Below, in pieces: positions 44,889 through 64,000 of a stretch of DNA of 64,000 bases (position 1 is its first letter; every line of letters starts with the position of its first letter). The stretch lies in NCBI RefSeq assembly GCF_030013595.1, contig NZ_CP122770.1; one strand, written 5' to 3'. Source of the stretch: Escherichia coli (lineage in GTDB: Bacteria > Pseudomonadota > Gammaproteobacteria > Enterobacterales > Enterobacteriaceae). The translations under genes and the position numbers were made by a program. The notes beneath the pieces are model-generated. The model ran no database searches and was not told the origin of the DNA. It worked only from the letters and a program-made list of their open reading frames with translations.

Positions 44889-45170
44889 TTATGGCCACTT
44901 CTGTGCGGTATGCAACACGCGCAGGACATACACTTTTCCCCACTGGCTGTCGACCTCATAAACCAGAACAAAATGGGGGTGAATAACCAGTTCCCGGGTT
45001 CCTTCCACACGACCGTTGCGACCTTTATACGGCTGCCCGGCCAGGCTGCTGGCTGAATAACCAATCCGTTCGTCCAGTTCAATGGCGGCCATCAGGTTCT
45101 GCTCCGCAATGTACTCACGAATGCGCTTCCTGTCCTGGCTGGCCAGCATGGTCCAGAATATCTCCATCAT
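44889..45170 (-). CDS. RelE/ParE-family toxin
   Basis: 93-aa ORF overlapping upstream antitoxin ORF by 4 nt. Confidence 0.7.
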   Translation of the reverse strand: MMEIFWTMLASQDRKRIREYIAEQNLMAAIELDERIGYSASSLAGQPYKGRNGRVEGTRELVIHPHFVLVYEVDSQWGKVYVLRVLHTAQKWP

Positions 45171-45436
45171 TTATCGGAAACCTTCCTGCTCATTTCATCC
45201 CGCCATGCAGCGGCAGAAGATTCGACCATGTCATGGGGAAGCACATCGCCGCGCTCGAGTTGCTGACGTCCTGCCGCAACCTGGTCACGGAACCAGGTAT
45301 TATGCTGCCGTTCAACGGTCTGGCGCATAAAATCCCGAATTAACTGAGAGCCATTACGGTCCATGCTTTTTGCAGCGGCCATAAAAGCATCCTTCAGTTC
45401 AGCGTCGATTCTTAAACTCATATTAACCTGTGCCAT
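45167..45436 (-). CDS. RelB/DinJ-family antitoxin
   Basis: 89 aa, RHH-like N-terminus (MAQVNMSLRIDAELKDAFMAAAK). Confidence 0.7.
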   Translation of the reverse strand: MAQVNMSLRIDAELKDAFMAAAKSMDRNGSQLIRDFMRQTVERQHNTWFRDQVAAGRQQLERGDVLPHDMVESSAAAWRDEMSRKVSDK

Positions 45437-45799
45437 TTATCACCTCGTCATTACTACGTATATACACAGTATATAACGATTCAGATATCGTCACCAGGAT
45501 ATGCCGCGCCAGCGGCATGGAAGGCGGCACGCTGTGGTTACATGTGATACCGGAGTAAAACCGCCGAAGCCCGGCGTCAGCCGGTACTGATTGATAGATT
45601 TCACCTTACCCATCCCCAGCCCTGCTAAGCCATACCCGCTTTCAGCCATGAGACAGTTTCTGTGCGCGGTCGGAGTGGTCCCGACGAGGGTTTACCCGAA
45701 GTCGGGGCGTATCTCCGCGTTAGCGGGCCGTGAGGGCCGCTTACGAGCGTGTACTGAGGACTTCCAGCCAGAAGACTGGCAGCGATGACAATGTAGTTA

Positions 45800-46340
45800 C
45801 AACATTCATAATTAAAAGCGATGTTGTTCCCGCCCTTCGGGCGGGGGCGGCCTCGCTTTTCAGTTATGAGGGGTGGGCACGGTGCTGCGTTTGTGTGGTG
45901 TTTTTTATTCCTGATGTTTTCGCGGTGGTTTCAGAACGGTGAGGTTCGGGGCCCGCGCGTTAGCGTGGGAGGTGCTTTTAGATTCTGAGCGGCGCGGCCT
46001 TGGCCGCTGCAAGCGAAGGCCTCTTTGTGTTTGTTCACGGTGGTTTCAGAGATAAAGACTTTCCCTGCGGCGAAGCAACGCAGGGGATTAAATAATGGGG
46101 TTAAGACTATATTGCAGGTTTGCTGTTTCAGGTTTGCAGCTTCTTAAAGTTTTTTGTTTGCGGATTTATGTGGATAACTGAAACAACGTGGCCACGTTCT
46201 GATGACTGATGCGTGGTTTTATGGGCAGATATGCCCCTCTGAGGGGATTTAAGGTGATTACTGCGGATTTTGGGCTGAGCGGAACCAGCGCCGAAAGCCC
46301 CGGAGGGGCTGGTGATGATTCAGTGCTGAGGGAATGGTGC
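45800..46340. other. Candidate replication origin region downstream of repZ
   Basis: Position as in IncI/IncB replicons; GC hairpins cccgcccttcgggcggg and cggcgcggccttggccgctg; no coding signal. Confidence 0.4.
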
Positions 46341-46343
46341 TGT

Positions 46344-47375
46344 CTAGTGCGGCGGTGGGGCAGCCAGCGTCAGTTCAAGCTGACGCAACTCCCTGATGGC
46401 CAGTCGCTTCAGATGGTCATCGGAACAAAAATAGGCTTCATCCGGCGGCAGACGCTTCCTGAGATATTCTGCCATCTCATGAATCTGCTGGTCGGCAGGC
46501 AGTTTCTTCAGGCGTCTGGCGCGCTTACTGGCTGCTGCTTTCGCACGACGGTGTTTCAGCGCATCCTGACTGCGCTGCAGATACCAGCGTTTTCTGGCCG
46601 CATGTACGGAGATATCTTCATCCTCACGCAGAACACCTTCCCGAATGAGCTGCTGGCGGATTTCACTTTCACGCAGTCGTTTCTGCTGCTGTTCGTGAAG
46701 TTTTACCATGTCGACGCCCAGCATCTGCCAGCCTGCCGGTGTTATCCAGACGTAACGAGGCAGACGCTGGCGGGTTTCACGGTCCCACAGGGTTTCATCT
46801 GAAACACCCAGCACACCAAAACGTACCTGTTCGGCCAGCAAACGGGAAAGGCGGGAGACCGTCACTTCCAGTTCCGGAATAACCTTCCCCTTGCTGTCTT
46901 TCGGGCTGATTTCTCTGGCCAGACGGGAAACACTCATGCCTACGGTATGTGTGCCCGCATCACTGAAGCTGACCAGAACCGGCCAGACGGCATCGAGGAG
47001 GCGTTGTTTTTCCGGACGGAAAGCATATTTGCGACCGGCATACGTTCGTTTCTGCACGTAAAAAGGATGCAGAGACATGTGCATGCGCAGGCTCTGCTCG
47101 CCGGTCACCGGGTCCTTTTTCACCAGACGGTTGTAGGCGTGCCCGAGCTGCCCGCTCAGCGCCTTATAGCGCTCAGGACGATACCAGGACGGATTTTCGC
47201 ATTTGGGTTTGGTGGAGTGCTCACCACGACGACGCTTCGTGCGCTTCCTTTCCGGTTCAACCAGGAAAGTGGTCGCCCTTCCCGCTTCATAGTCTTCCCA
47301 GAAACGGATCTGCTCTTCGGGTGCTAACTGACTCCAGTGTACTGCGTTATATGGAGTATTCTTCAGACCTGCCAC
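46344..47375 (-). CDS. repZ: RepZ replication initiator (IncI1/IncB RepA family)
   Basis: 343 aa from GTG at 47375 lying within end of repY; track ORF extends 15 codons upstream. Confidence 0.85.
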   Translation of the reverse strand: MAGLKNTPYNAVHWSQLAPEEQIRFWEDYEAGRATTFLVEPERKRTKRRRGEHSTKPKCENPSWYRPERYKALSGQLGHAYNRLVKKDPVTGEQSLRMHMSLHPFYVQKRTYAGRKYAFRPEKQRLLDAVWPVLVSFSDAGTHTVGMSVSRLAREISPKDSKGKVIPELEVTVSRLSRLLAEQVRFGVLGVSDETLWDRETRQRLPRYVWITPAGWQMLGVDMVKLHEQQQKRLRESEIRQQLIREGVLREDEDISVHAARKRWYLQRSQDALKHRRAKAAASKRARRLKKLPADQQIHEMAEYLRKRLPPDEAYFCSDDHLKRLAIRELRQLELTLAAPPPH

Positions 47376-47452
47376 AAGCTGTCGCTTATGGCGGAGCGAT
47401 TGTGCCGTGTATTTATACACTGCACAGGGTTGAATCTCTGGTACGGTTTCAT
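47363..47452 (-). CDS. repY: RepY leader peptide (29 codons) coupled to repZ translation
   Basis: ATG at 47452, stop at 47363 overlapping repZ start; MKPYQRFNPVQCINTRHNRSAISDSLWQV. Confidence 0.65.
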   Translation of the reverse strand: MKPYQRFNPVQCINTRHNRSAISDSLWQV

Positions 47453-47464
47453 TATACTTTACCC

Positions 47465-47536
47465 GTATTCTGTGAGGCCCCCACTATCTTTCGTCGTTCC
47501 GCCAAGTTCGTAAGAAAGATAGTGGGGGTTTTCCTT
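47465..47536 (+). ncRNA. inc: Inc antisense RNA (copy-number control), approximate
   Basis: 14-bp perfect stem (47476-47491 / 47515-47528), loop with CCGCCAA (mRNA loop UUGGCGG), T-rich tail on plus strand. Confidence 0.55.
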
Positions 47537-47815
47537 TTATGGCTTCCGGAACATCTTCAGTCTTCTGACTTACTGCCCGTACATGCCATCTCTCCTGAAT
47601 GCCTTATGGCGCATTCTGCCGTCCGGCTTTCGCCGGTTTGCTCCACAGAGTGCCACTCTCTGCACAGCTAATAACAGCCGAAATATACCCGCTTTACGTT
47701 AATTTGAAAAGCATTACAACGATCTCTTCTCTTCCAGTGCCTCCTCACTGATACCTCTAATAAGTTAATCTTGACCTACGTCAAAAAAATAAAATCTATT
47801 TTTAAAAGCAGATTT

Positions 47816-47973
47816 TTCTGCTTTAGATCTTTCTTTTGGATTAAAAGATCGACTTTTGTCCTACTCACGATCATTTATCTTACAACCGATCTACCTAACA
47901 GAATAATATTCTGTTTTAATGCAATTAAACGATCTAAATAACCTTTAAAAAATCATTTTGTAGATCATTCGAT
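47816..47973. promoter_or_regulatory. Cluster of seven GATC sites in AT-rich region between replicon and traA
   Basis: GATC at 47816, 47837, 47869, 47888, 47931, 47963, 47970. Confidence 0.5.
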
Positions 47974-48527
47974 CGTAAATAGAATAATTCTTAGATGATA
48001 AAACCATTTGTTACACAACCCGCCAATTGTGTAACAACAGCCTCTACAAGAGCATATTTGTTCATATGTTCGTCAGAACTGCGGATTGTCTGGACGAGGG
48101 TCAGACACCGTTTCGTGCATATGGACCAGCATGTTCGAACGCCACAAAGCAGAAGCATCATGCCTGGATCGCTTCGGCGCGGAGCGTTAAGTTTTGACGC
48201 TTTTTTGTATGTTTTTTAAGCTGTTAGTTGACTCGGTGCGTTATACTAAGTACCCTTTACTGGTCACAGGCAAAACTGTGATCGGGCGTAGGAACCCGCG
48301 TAGTCATCGTCGGCGCAGAAGTTAATTTCTTCATTTGGCGTCGTTTTTTGCCATACCATAAAGACAGGAACTTGTATTTCTTGTCGTCATCTATGGTAGC
48401 TCAGGCGGGGCAGGCATTAGCCTGGCCGGTTTCCGATGACGCCGGTATTCCTACCCCCGTCTGGGCTATCACCAATGAGCGTAGGAACTCGGTGATAGCG
48501 TTTTTAGTTGTCATCGGAGACCTTTGC

Positions 48528-48816
48528 TATGTCACCTCAACTGATACAGAAACTCCCGGCCATCACTCTGTTGGAAGGCATGTTTCCCGAGCTATCAACA
48601 AACCAGCTTAAAGTCTGCGTTTTTTACGCAATGGGTGTTCCTTACGACGCCATTGCTCAGAACTGTCGGCTTTCTCCCGAAACGGTACGAACCTACCTGA
48701 AGCGAAGCCTGAAGAATTTAAATCTGGAAGGATATGATGCACTTCGCTCTGCTGTGCTGATGCGAACTTTCGTTTTCATGATTAGCAATACAGCTAAAGA
48801 AAACGAAAAAATGTGA
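48528..48816 (+). CDS. traA: TraA-like LuxR/GerE-type HTH regulator
   Basis: ATG at 48528 with GGAGA RBS; C-terminal HTH (LSTNQLKVCVFYAMGVPYDAIAQNCRLSPETVRTYLKRSLKNL). Confidence 0.55.
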
Positions 48817-59851: not shown

Positions 59852-60466
59852 ATGTTAATCCAAAATATTGATGTTAACGCTCTGAAGAAAAATGAGAAAG
59901 AAACGTCTCATGACAAAGGCTGGGGTATTATGGAACAGGGTGCAATAGCACTTGTTGTAATTATCGTACTTGCCCTTGTTTTTGGTGGATTGTATATGTT
60001 GCGTTCACGAACCGGTGTGGCAAATGAAAGTTCGAACATACAGACAATCATCACAAGTACTCAGGGGCTGCTAAAAGGTAGCGATGGATATACGTTTACC
60101 AGTGGAGCCAAAATGACGGGTGCTCTCATTCAGATGGGTGGCGTACCCAAGACCATGACAGTGCGTGGTACTCCATCATCAGGTACAGCAACGCTCTATA
60201 ACTCATGGGGCGGTGCCGTAACTGTTGCTCCGGCTTCAACATCAGGTTTCAACAATGGTTTTACCGTCACCTATGAAAAAGTCCCACAGGATGCCTGTAT
60301 CCAGATTGCCACACAAATCAGTCGTACTGGTTTAACTAACGGTATTACCCTGAACAGTACGACTCACAATGATGGAAAAGTCACTACTGAAGAAGCCAGT
60401 GCGCAATGCACAGCTGATAATGGCAGCACCGGTACAAACAAACTAATCTTCACCATCAATGGCTAA
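59852..60466 (+). CDS. pilS: PilS type IVb prepilin (major pilin)
   Basis: 204 aa; leader then hydrophobic GAIALVVIIVLALVFGGLYML. Confidence 0.8.
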   Translation: MLIQNIDVNALKKNEKETSHDKGWGIMEQGAIALVVIIVLALVFGGLYMLRSRTGVANESSNIQTIITSTQGLLKGSDGYTFTSGAKMTGALIQMGGVPKTMTVRGTPSSGTATLYNSWGGAVTVAPASTSGFNNGFTVTYEKVPQDACIQIATQISRTGLTNGITLNSTTHNDGKVTTEEASAQCTADNGSTGTNKLIFTING

Positions 60467-60475
60467 GGAGTTTTA

Positions 60476-61036
60476 ATGTCCGGGGGTAAAGTGCCCCTCA
60501 GACTTATTTCATTAATCCTGCTTTGTTCTCTTATTTATCCCGCCCGAGCTTCATACATCGCCCCCAAACAAATCTGGACTAACAAGTGGGACAATTGCTT
60601 TGCCGCCGCCGGCGCACGCTATCAAATTGAACCATTATTGTTGAAGGCCATTTCTGCCGGGGAATCTTCATTGAAGCCGGGCGCAATTAACATAAATAAG
60701 GACAGAAAAACAGGCAAAGCCAGTAGTACGGATTATGGGTTGATGCAAATAAACTCAACCCATATTCCAAAGCTTATAAAGATGGGCGTAATCAAAAAGT
60801 CTGAGGATTTAATTACCAAACCATGTCTTAATATCCATATAGGAAGCTGGATACTGGCAAGACATTTTCAGATATGTGGCGTCAGCTGGAATTGCCTTGG
60901 ATCATACAATGCCGGATTCCGTAAGGACAGACATGAAACAAGAGAGCAATATGCTAATAAAGTATGGAGAATTTATCGTGACATGAAAGGGATATGCCTT
61001 CCCGGGCAGGGAGGCAGACAATGCAGACAATCGTAG
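60476..61036 (+). CDS. pilT: PilT lytic transglycosylase
   Basis: 186 aa; signal peptide; SLT motif AISAGESS. Confidence 0.8.
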   Translation: MSGGKVPLRLISLILLCSLIYPARASYIAPKQIWTNKWDNCFAAAGARYQIEPLLLKAISAGESSLKPGAININKDRKTGKASSTDYGLMQINSTHIPKLIKMGVIKKSEDLITKPCLNIHIGSWILARHFQICGVSWNCLGSYNAGFRKDRHETREQYANKVWRIYRDMKGICLPGQGGRQCRQS

Positions 61037-61677
61037 GCATAAGTCTCTCCCCTGTTTATATCCTCCCATTGATGTTCATATTTTCCATTATTGGACGAAC
61101 TCTGTTATTCAGAGTTCGTTATTTTTTATCTGATACAGAACATCTCTGGTATAAGACACACACTGCAGTTCTGTCAGGAATATGGCTATATAGTATAGCT
61201 GTGGCATTAATTATTTTATCGCCATCCCAACTTCTCTACCGTATTCATGCTGTTCTTATTCTTTCGTTCATGCTGCAAATGGCAGTAACGGATGCACTAA
61301 CAGGCCTCTTACCGGGTACATTCACCAGGCGTTTTTTAATCGCTGGAATATTATCACAAATCACAACTGATATATGGTGGCTCCGTGCAACAGAAATTGT
61401 CTCTGCCGCAATTGTCTTATTCTGTCTGCATAAACTGGTTAACCGCCATCGTCTTAATATTGGCACAGGAGACCTGTGGCTTATTGCAGGTATTACCGCA
61501 TGGTCAGGGCTATATAACGCCATATGGAGTGTGTTGCTGGGCGCAGGAGGATTTGTCTTATGGCATTCAACATGGTGCATAAAAGGACATAAAGAAGGCC
61601 CACTGGGTCCATGGCTGTGTCTTGGCCATGTCCTTTTGCTACTGGATAATCTTTATCAACCACTATGGGTAATCTGA
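61021..61677 (+). CDS. pilU: PilU prepilin peptidase
   Basis: 218 aa from ATG at 61021; multi-TM. Confidence 0.75.
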
Positions 61678-63101
61678 TGAAAAAATATGACCGAGGCTGG
61701 GCATCGCTGGAAATTGGCGCGGCTTTATTGATTGTTATGATCATAGTTGCCTGGGGAGCAGGCATATGGCAGGACTATTTAAAAACCAAAGGTTGGCAGG
61801 CTGAAGCTCGTCTTGTCAGCAACTGGGCCAGTGCAGCCCGCTCTTATATAGGGAAAAACTACACAACTCTCCAGGCAAGTAGTACCACATCAACCCCTGC
61901 CGTTATCACGACAACCATGCTGAAAAATACCGGCTTTTTGTCCAGCGGCTTTATTGAGACAAACAGCGAGGGGCAGCGGTTACAGGCATATGTAGTTCGA
62001 AACGCCCAAAACCCGGAATTACTACAGGCAATGGTTGTATCCAGTGGTGGCACCCCTTATCCAGTGAAAGCACTTATCCAGATGGCTAAGGATATTACCA
62101 CTGGTCTTGGTGGATATATCCAGGACGGCAAAACAGCCACAGGTGCATTACGTTCCTGGTCAGTAGCTTTAAGTAATTATGGTGCCAAAAGCGGTAACGG
62201 GCATATTGCCGTACTGTTATCGACAGATGAACTTAGTGGTGCAGCAGAGGACACTGATCGTCTTTACAGATTCCAGGTCAATGGTCGCCCTGACTTAAAC
62301 AAAATGCACACGGCCATTGATATGGGATCAAATAACCTGAATAACATTGGGGCAGTAAATGCCCAGACTGGTAATTTCAGCGGCAATGTGAATGGTGTAA
62401 ATGGCACTTTCAGCGGTCAGGTAAAAGGCAATAGCGGAAACTTTGACGTAAATGTCACCGCTGGCGGTGATATCAGAAGTAATAATGGTTGGTTAATTAC
62501 TCGTAACAGCAAAGGCTGGCTCAATGAAACTCACGGTGGCGGATTTTATATGTCCGACGGATCATGGGTTCGAAGTGTAAACAACAAGGGCATCTATACC
62601 GGCGGTCAGGTGAAAGGCGGTACTGTTCGGGCTGATGGTCGCCTTTATACTGGTGAATACTTACAACTGGAAAGAACTGCCGTTGCTGGCGCATCATGTT
62701 CGCCTAACGGCCTTGTAGGCCGCGATAATACAGGGGCAATACTTTCGTGCCAATCCGGTACGTGGAAGACTTCTGGTTCGCTCAATGGTTCTTACACAAA
62801 CTTAGGTTCACATAGAGGTTCATTCTCAGGGCGGAATTCAGGGGGCAGTACATTGTTTATTTATGCATCTGGAGGTAATGGAGGATCTGCCGGAGGTGCA
62901 TGTGCAAATACATCCCGACTGCAGGGATATGTTGGTGGGACGCTAATTAGCGTGAATGCCAGTAATAACCCTGCATATGGAAAAACAGCCTTTATCAGCT
63001 TTGCTGTACCTGCAGGTACTTCCTATCAGATAACATCCTATCCAACAGAAAATACATCATGTGGTGCCGGGGTATTTTCAGTATTTGGATATCAAACTTA
63101 A
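61665..63101 (+). CDS. pilV: PilV minor pilin/adhesin with shufflon-encoded C-terminus (start may be ATG 61677)
   Basis: Prepilin-like N-terminus; first sfx repeat inside ORF at 62747-62765; Gly-rich variable C-terminus. Confidence 0.85.
62747..62765 (+). repeat. Shufflon 19-bp recombination repeat (sfx) 1
   Basis: gtgccaatccggtacgtgg. Confidence 0.85.
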
Positions 63102-63300
63102 TTGAGCGTTACACACGACGCAATACAACCTGTCTTATGCTCGTATTTGTACCATTTGCGTGAACCTGCTGGGCTCTCAACTACCTGGCAGTAGTGGGCA
63201 TCCTCTGCGTTGCCCACTCTGGCAATGGCACAGAAGTCGAATTGCCCCAGATAACCTGTGGTGGAAAGCTGAGTAACTTTGAGTTTTCCACCTATTGTCC

Positions 63301-63319
63301 CCACGTACCGGATTGGCAC
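63301..63319 (-). repeat. Shufflon sfx repeat 2 (inverted)
   Basis: Reverse complement identical to repeat 1. Confidence 0.85.
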
Positions 63320-63327
63320 GTAGGCCA

Positions 63328-63346
63328 GTGCCAATCCGGTCGGTGG
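63328..63346 (+). repeat. Shufflon sfx repeat 3
   Basis: gtgccaatccggtcggtgg (2 mismatches to repeat 1). Confidence 0.8.
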
Positions 63347-63801
63347 TCAGGGGGTAATAAAATTAATTACTCAGCATGTAATTGGTACAAATCATCCGTA
63401 GCAATGAATCACTTTATCGGCGGTAAGAGTGGTGGTTCGATCTATTACAAGCCGATTCAATGTCCGACTGGATACATTATGACTGGAACACGCATGTACG
63501 GTATTGGTGATGGTGTTGATGAGGAACATGTCGATGCCTACTGTTGCCCCTTTAATTAAGCTCCAGCACCAGGAAGATTGAGGCATGTGACTGATATGGT
63601 CCCACCAGACTCATAATTTCCCCAAGCATAATTACTCACATACCAAACGTTGTTTTGGTCGGAATATACCTGTTGAAAACCACCAAAGGGTGAGCCATTC
63701 AGGTAAGTCCATGAGCAATATGCATGGACCCCGAGCCTTAAATTACGAGTGTTTTTAGCTATGTTGTAGGTCTGCGTTGTGAATTGAATTTTAGGAGCGC
63801 C

Positions 63802-63820
63802 CCAGGTACCGGATTGGCAC
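63802..63820 (-). repeat. Shufflon sfx repeat 4 (inverted)
   Basis: Reverse complement gtgccaatccggtacctgg; followed by same spacer gtaggccag. Confidence 0.8.
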
Positions 63821-64000
63821 GTAGGCCAGCAGCGCCAGCAATTTAATCTCAGTTCTGACACGCGACGACATAACTACATTTTCCGGTTAAATCAGCTCTA
63901 AATGTCCCTTTATGGAAATTGTATTCATCATAAAAACCACATTTAACAATTCGATTTGCATCATAAGTTGCAACTGATCCTGCAAAGTAATTCGGCTTCC

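Follow-up and report, generated by a model that had tools for sequence, protein, structure and literature searches.

Does the shufflon of an IncI1-type plasmid lack a single base that silences one of its alternative pilus adhesins, or is the base missing from the deposited sequence alone? The question arose at the 3' end of pilV in a 64,000-nt stretch of an Escherichia coli plasmid (contig NZ_CP122770.1), hereafter the window. PilV is the tip adhesin of the thin type IVb pilus, which is used for liquid mating. It is established in the literature that the tyrosine recombinase Rci acts on head-to-head sfx sites and that every inversion joins another partial ORF to the constant 363 codons of pilV, thereby altering the LPS-binding tip adhesin. 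The original prediction held that one of these endings was out of frame by one base at a G4 tract, owing either to genuine inactivation or to a homopolymer error. This either/or proved to be the right framing, and the population evidence leans toward error.

The window contains four copies of the invariant 13-mer GTGCCAATCCGGT, starting at 62747 (+), 63307 (-), 63328 (+), and 63808 (-), against 0.16 copies expected by chance; four copies were reached in none of 100 shuffles. An sfx site consists of a 12-bp variable left arm, a 7-bp core, and a 12-bp conserved right arm (PMC11852207). Over the 19 bp formed by the conserved arm and the core, the four sites make up two head-to-head inverted pairs, all perfect, and their sequences are those of the R64 sites. 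The shufflons of R64 (NC_005014), ColIb-P9 (NC_002122), and about 20 other IncI1 plasmids were compared, each sfx being named after the exon into which it leads, and the start-to-start spacings of complete, well-assembled shufflons, 555 (A), 474 (C), 506 (B), 329 (D), and 27 nt between segments, were taken as canonical. R64, ColIb-P9, and 15 other plasmids showed 555/27/474/506/329, and the window showed 554/27/474. Among the convergent partial ORFs that continue the pilV frame through an sfx, A, C, and C' are in frame, the tail of D' is present, and A' is shifted by -1; at the amino acid level, A, C, C', and as much of D' as is visible do not differ from R64. Positions 62747-64000 contain the beginning of an IncI1 shufflon of the canonical R64 type at the 3' end of pilV; segments A and C are complete, and segment D is present for its first 180 nt. 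The expectation that four sfx repeats bound at least two invertible segments was borne out by the two inverted pairs around A and C. The R64 shufflon has four segments and seven sfx sites, with two exons each in A, B, and C and one in D (PMC5430464). Public plasmids show nearly identical segments in a wide range of orders and orientations, which is indirect evidence that such segments invert and permute. The shufflon system, its recombinase, its sites, and the receptors of the adhesins are already known, and nothing about them is new here.

In its current PilVA form, pilV runs from 61665 to 63101 on the plus strand and encodes 478 aa from the first ATG, or 474 aa from the R64-equivalent start at 61677. 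Residues 37-365 matched Pfam Shufflon_N (PF04917; E = 6e-185), and near-identical records are annotated as shufflon-system pilus tip adhesin PilV. A search of NCBIfam (release 20) matched no model to PilV, although PGAP uses the name, and Pfam Shufflon_N alone detected the protein. The constant region (Shufflon_N) extends to 62765 on the plus strand and ends in the sfx-encoded CQSG(T/R)W. There the sfx of exon A (62747-62765, plus strand), composed of the 12-bp conserved right arm GTGCCAATCCGG followed by the 7-bp core TACGTGG, lies within the pilV frame as CQSGTW and leads into exon A (62766-63101, plus strand; KTSGSLNG...FGYQT-stop), which is identical in amino acids to R64 A and is the ending currently expressed. 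In segment A (62766-63300; R64 segment A), the plus strand encodes exon A and the minus strand exon A'. The body of A' (63098-63300, minus strand; ..TIGGKLKVTQLST...CVTLN-stop) is in the -1 frame relative to pilV here, and its sfx (63301-63319, minus strand) is a perfect inverted copy of the 62747-62765 site, the pair being 100% complementary over 20 nt. An 8-bp spacer, GTAGGCCA, follows at 63320-63327 and yields the canonical 27-nt start-to-start spacing.

Segment C (63347-63801; 100% identical to CP126935) lies between the sfx of exon C (GTGCCAATCCGGTCGGTGG; 63328-63346, plus strand) and that of exon C' (GTGCCAATCCGGTACCTGG; 63802-63820, minus strand), both of which match the repeat. Exon C occupies 63347-63559 on the plus strand (SGGNKINY...CCPFN-stop) and exon C' 63556-63801 on the minus strand (GAPKIQF...LPGAGA-stop). 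As predicted, this second segment is in frame in both orientations, giving CQSGRWSGGNKINY...CCPFN-stop (+) and ...PGAGA-stop (-), each identical to the R64 counterpart. The stop codons of A and A' overlap in the palindrome TTAA at 63098-63101, and those of C and C' do likewise at 63556-63559; hence no non-coding DNA separates the two exons of either segment. Segment D begins with its sfx-less end at 63821 and continues to 64000 (minus strand; 99.5% identical to the R64 D segment). The last 49 codons and stop of D' (63849-63998, minus strand; KPNYFAGS...VVACQN-stop) equal the R64 D' C-terminus, and the exon runs on to the window end. In all relatives, the sfx sites of C' and D' are spaced 329 nt apart, and by homology the sfx of D' is expected about 130 nt past the window end. 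The further repeat had been predicted to be degenerate, a point that did not hold, as D owns a single normal sfx; a candidate degenerate sfx at 63829-63850 was rejected because this end of D is free of sfx in every reference. The gene rci directly follows the last sfx in most fetched relatives, the few exceptions having an insertion sequence in the stretch fetched (e.g., pSC2014238-90k and pHV114), and by homology it should lie just beyond the window end. In pHV114 (NZ_KM377238) and NZ_CP101371, ISEcp1 and the IS66-family ISEc8 were seen immediately distal to the segments, truncating the shufflon.

Reading the minus strand through the sfx at 63301-63319 gave CQSGTW-GQ-stop, exactly the ending foreseen for an inverted segment 1, and the long Cys-containing ORF (GTIGGKLKVTQLST...) was indeed present one frame off. 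The plus-strand CCCC (G4 on the minus strand) had been placed correctly to the base at 63299-63302, where the references have C5 (G5) or CCTCC (GGAGG). Positions 63301-63302 are the last two bases of the core and 63299-63300 the first bases of the variable left arm; the conserved 19-bp part of the sfx is intact, and the left arm is displaced by one base. After the A' sfx, R64, ColIb-P9, p15A44, and the C227-11 plasmid carry GGGACAAT, read as TGC CAA TCC GGT ACG TGG GGG ACA ATA, with five G where the window has four, and the R64-type A' reads CQSGTW-GTIGGKLKV... over 73 codons. The junction in the window, TGG-GGA-CAA-TAG, is one base short of the TGG-GGG-ACA or TGG-AGG-ACA found in about 1,080 public plasmids. 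Because this base is missing, inversion of segment A would yield PilV truncated to ...CQSGTWGQ-stop. The frame is restored by one added G, as had been proposed, and also by one added A, either of which recovers the 73-codon A' exon.

Another reading is that segment 1 can by nature be used in only one orientation, as D is in R64, and R64-type shufflons do contain one such segment (PMC5430464). Yet the reverse exon A' is unbroken over its 73 codons in R64, ColIb-P9, and more than 1,000 further plasmids, and the receptor of PilVA' has been defined (PMC10654706). The original prediction had named one-sidedness in reference shufflons as the observation that would count against it, and these roughly 1,080 in-frame plasmids show the opposite. 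With segment A two-sided in all references, we ruled out a naturally one-sided segment 1, a reading that we consider next to inconceivable.

The A' exon of the window differs from that of R64 by one Met-to-Val change (63217C; R64 has T). Only six plasmids in PLSDB carry 63217C (e.g., CP071443, CP055101, and CP093082), all with GGAGG and all in frame; in the rest of segment A they are not identical to the window, and their pil region diverges from it by 1%. Since these nearest A' haplotypes carry GGAGG, the base lost from the window may be an A rather than a G, and if the ancestor was GGAGG, the loss would not be a pure miscall of homopolymer length. The pairing of 63217C with G4 was absent from public records, so the deletion is private to the window sequence. 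Segment A of the window has the appearance of a haplotype mosaic.

The junction was surveyed with allele-specific megablast queries of 44 nt, each 28-mer seed of which covered the whole tract. In PLSDB, the first variable codon of A' is naturally dimorphic: about 796 records have GGG (Gly; G5) and about 285 have AGG (Arg; GGAGG), and either allele keeps A' in frame. GGAGG, read as W-R-T..., accounts for about 26% of alleles, and the Arg allele interrupts the homopolymer. G4 was found in 39 PLSDB records, 25 of them exact and the rest with further nearby differences; its share is thus about 3% of public A'-bearing plasmids, the other 97% keeping A' in frame. Among the complete E. coli genomes of RefSeq, 13 exact G4 records and eight with extra differences were found. 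As an internal control, we used the G5 tract inside exon A (62841-62845), which is intact in the window. This tract was G4 in 44 PLSDB records, a frequency about equal to that of the A' junction, and 21 of the 39 records with G4 at the junction carried both deletions, against 1.5 expected (Fisher p = 2e-22). These double deletions indicate that single-base deletions here mostly belong to particular assemblies rather than to plasmid lineages. When 14 G4 records were inspected, ten had other shufflon indels or misassembly (a second, exon-A G5-to-G4 change, A4-to-A3, short B or C segments, up to eight deletions in G/C runs, and chimeric joins), and four were clean. In the inspected G5 and GGAGG records, the sole departures in spacing were CP147060, with a longer natural A allele, and CP178657, with a variant distal arrangement. 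Many deposited IncI1 shufflons carry artefactual frameshifts and a truncated PilV annotation (e.g., CP023376; PilV of 422 aa). NZ_CP023534.1 (FDAARGOS_403 plasmid, 108,679 bp) has two A' junctions, one G5 (13284) and one G4 (103699), which suggests that its shufflon was duplicated or misassembled as deposited.

The length polymorphism between G4 and G5 in public records might be taken for a programmed slipped-strand switch, a phase-variable layer on top of the shufflon that toggles A' independently of inversion, the more so as two near-identical plasmids from one study are one base apart (CP023376, 92,420 bp; CP023365, 92,421 bp). Known contingency tracts are far longer than 4-5 nt, which is the whole length of this tract. 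Furthermore, about a quarter of the in-frame alleles are interrupted as GGAGG, and records with G4 tend to have lost bases from unrelated homopolymers as well; CP023376 is one of them, with its control tract also shortened. What we found is not a long homopolymer that varies within clones independently of sequencing quality, and phase variation at this tract is very improbable.

We favor a consensus error as the probable, though far from certain, origin of the missing base. A polishing or consensus slip would have occurred at the inversion breakpoint, in a region that is heterogeneous within the sequenced culture, and the plasmid would in truth keep an intact A'. On either reading, C, C', and D' are intact and PilVA is the form currently expressed. 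The in-frame A' of all six plasmids with 63217C also speaks for an error. Shufflon heterogeneity has been documented to defeat error-correction software (PMC5430464), and the clustering of G4 in error-prone records fits this published warning about heterogeneity and consensus correction. Selection adds slight weight: A' is a generalist adhesin, the loss of which should be selected against, and neutral fixation is made less likely by that functional importance and by the intact frame seen in 97% of records. A search of the literature turned up neither A' frameshifts nor homopolymer problems peculiar to IncI1 shufflons. Against an error, no window-private indel was found over 44890-62765 (about 18 kb) relative to three close relatives, all large backbone genes are full length, and both other G5 tracts of the visible shufflon (62841-62845 and 63350-63354) are intact. 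These three observations mean that the assembly is not generally error-laden, so that a genuine deletion stays plausible.

Such a deletion would be a private, recent 1-nt loss, arising by slippage from G5 or by removal of the A from GGAGG, and would inactivate A'. Apart from the clean state of the window elsewhere, it draws on the four clean public records, E. albertii p3RM9974, S. sonnei pFORC11.2, S. Kentucky pN18S1563-2, and Salmonella pSC2014238-90k, in which G4 is the sole shufflon anomaly; their hosts are unrelated, all four have G4 in the expressed position, and a genuine deletion at this tract may therefore exist in nature. For p3RM9974 (NZ_CP043268), neither pilN nor pilL is listed, and the annotation shows an IS2 transposase where pilN should be; its thin-pilus operon may be decaying, and G4 there could be genuine. 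The shufflon of p3RM9974 retains just two segments, A and B, and its pilV continues into A' (G4). In addition, PGAP labels pilV as frameshifted where A' (G4) sits in the expressed position, and the left-arm sequence has been reported to affect the inversion rate (PMC11852207). If the deletion is genuine, the one-base shift of the left arm might slightly alter the frequency of Rci inversion. However, G4 is as frequent here as at the control tract and co-occurs with it massively, a pattern that fits a technology error rather than selection or lineage; no relative combines 63217C with G4, and A' is in frame in nearly all records. We therefore hold a genuine loss to be possible but doubtful. It could also be imagined that the G5 tract spanning core and left arm is a real, recurrent mutational hot spot that switches off PilVA', for example to avoid self-recognition or aggregation of donors, with the window and the four clean G4 plasmids as independent instances; this extension of the idea is speculative and unlikely.

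The consequences of a genuine deletion would be limited. PilVA' of TP114 binds the conserved inner-core Hep-alpha(1-3)-Hep-4-phosphate and allows transfer to recipients of each of the five E. coli core types, and the R64 homologues are reported to share the receptors of TP114 PilV (PMC10654706); the C-terminal domain of PilV is required for transfer in broth (PMC9045228). If the deletion is genuine, six functional PilV endings would be left, and inversion of segment A would be an off (PilV-null) state with a 365-aa PilV devoid of the adhesin domain. The broad-range inner-core adhesin PilVA' would be gone, mating in liquid or in the gut would be lower for cells in the off state, and spread in these settings would be modestly narrower or slower. 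The practical lesson concerns database records: because the frameshifts are concentrated in error-prone assemblies and fall at G5 tracts and at an inversion breakpoint, single-base frameshifts in shufflon exons of deposited IncI1 plasmids need to be checked against reads before they are interpreted as biology. As a textbook system of I-complex plasmids, the locus otherwise has little discovery value.

Comparison with known systems places the window close to R64 (IncI1; NC_005014/AP005147; pilV, segments A-D, seven sfx, and rci). The cores are the same (TACGTGG for A and A', TCGGTGG for C, and TACCTGG for C'), as are the segment lengths and the 8-bp spacers, whereas the window lacks one base at the boundary of core and left arm in A', carries the Met-to-Val change (63217C) in A', has the order A-C-D in place of another order deposited for R64, and is only about 93-97% identical to R64 in the pil backbone. 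The shufflon of pESBL-EA11 and the E. coli O104:H4 C227-11 IncI1 plasmid (NZ_CP011336, NC_018659) is 99.8% identical over 62700-64000 and shares A-C-D', but it has G5 at the A' junction and spans 1,302 nt where the window spans 1,301 nt. This shufflon has been described as apparently intact and rearranging (PMC4288162). The B' sfx of NZ_CP011336 (4460-4478 of the fetched fragment) reads GTGCCAATCCGGGACGTGG, with a T-to-G change at the first core position and an A-type core, unlike B' of other plasmids. The IncI2 plasmids R721 and TP114 follow the same principle, with homologous A, A', C, C', B', and D' exons, but differ in variants of the sfx right arm, in their segment sets (a BD fusion in R721 and an extra D exon in TP114), and in the plasmid backbone. 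IncI1 records with a frameshifted pilV (e.g., pEC1515-1, pFORC_081_1, and pCVM22462) have the same G4 at the A' junction; most of them carry extra homopolymer deletions or misassemblies in the shufflon, whereas the window has none.

Upstream of pilV, ORFs have the exact R64 lengths for pilL, M, N, O, P, Q, S, T, and U, and the window also carries trbABC, nikAB, and a 626-aa ORF of colicin size, which together identify it as about 64 kb of an IncI1-complex plasmid. No identical relative was found in PLSDB or in RefSeq complete E. coli genomes, the best matches being 99.8% for the shufflon, 99.3-99.8% for the pil region, and about 98% at most for the first 25 kb. For that first 25 kb, the best PLSDB match is E. 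albertii p3RM9974, itself a G4 record. The leading region contains a 555-aa ORF (20256-21923, plus strand), and plasmids that match positions 1-25000 annotate a group II intron reverse transcriptase/maturase (ltrA) in that stretch. The ATG of a 402-aa ORF, equal in length to R64 trbA, falls exactly at the window start (1-1209), and the record was probably rotated to begin at trbA.
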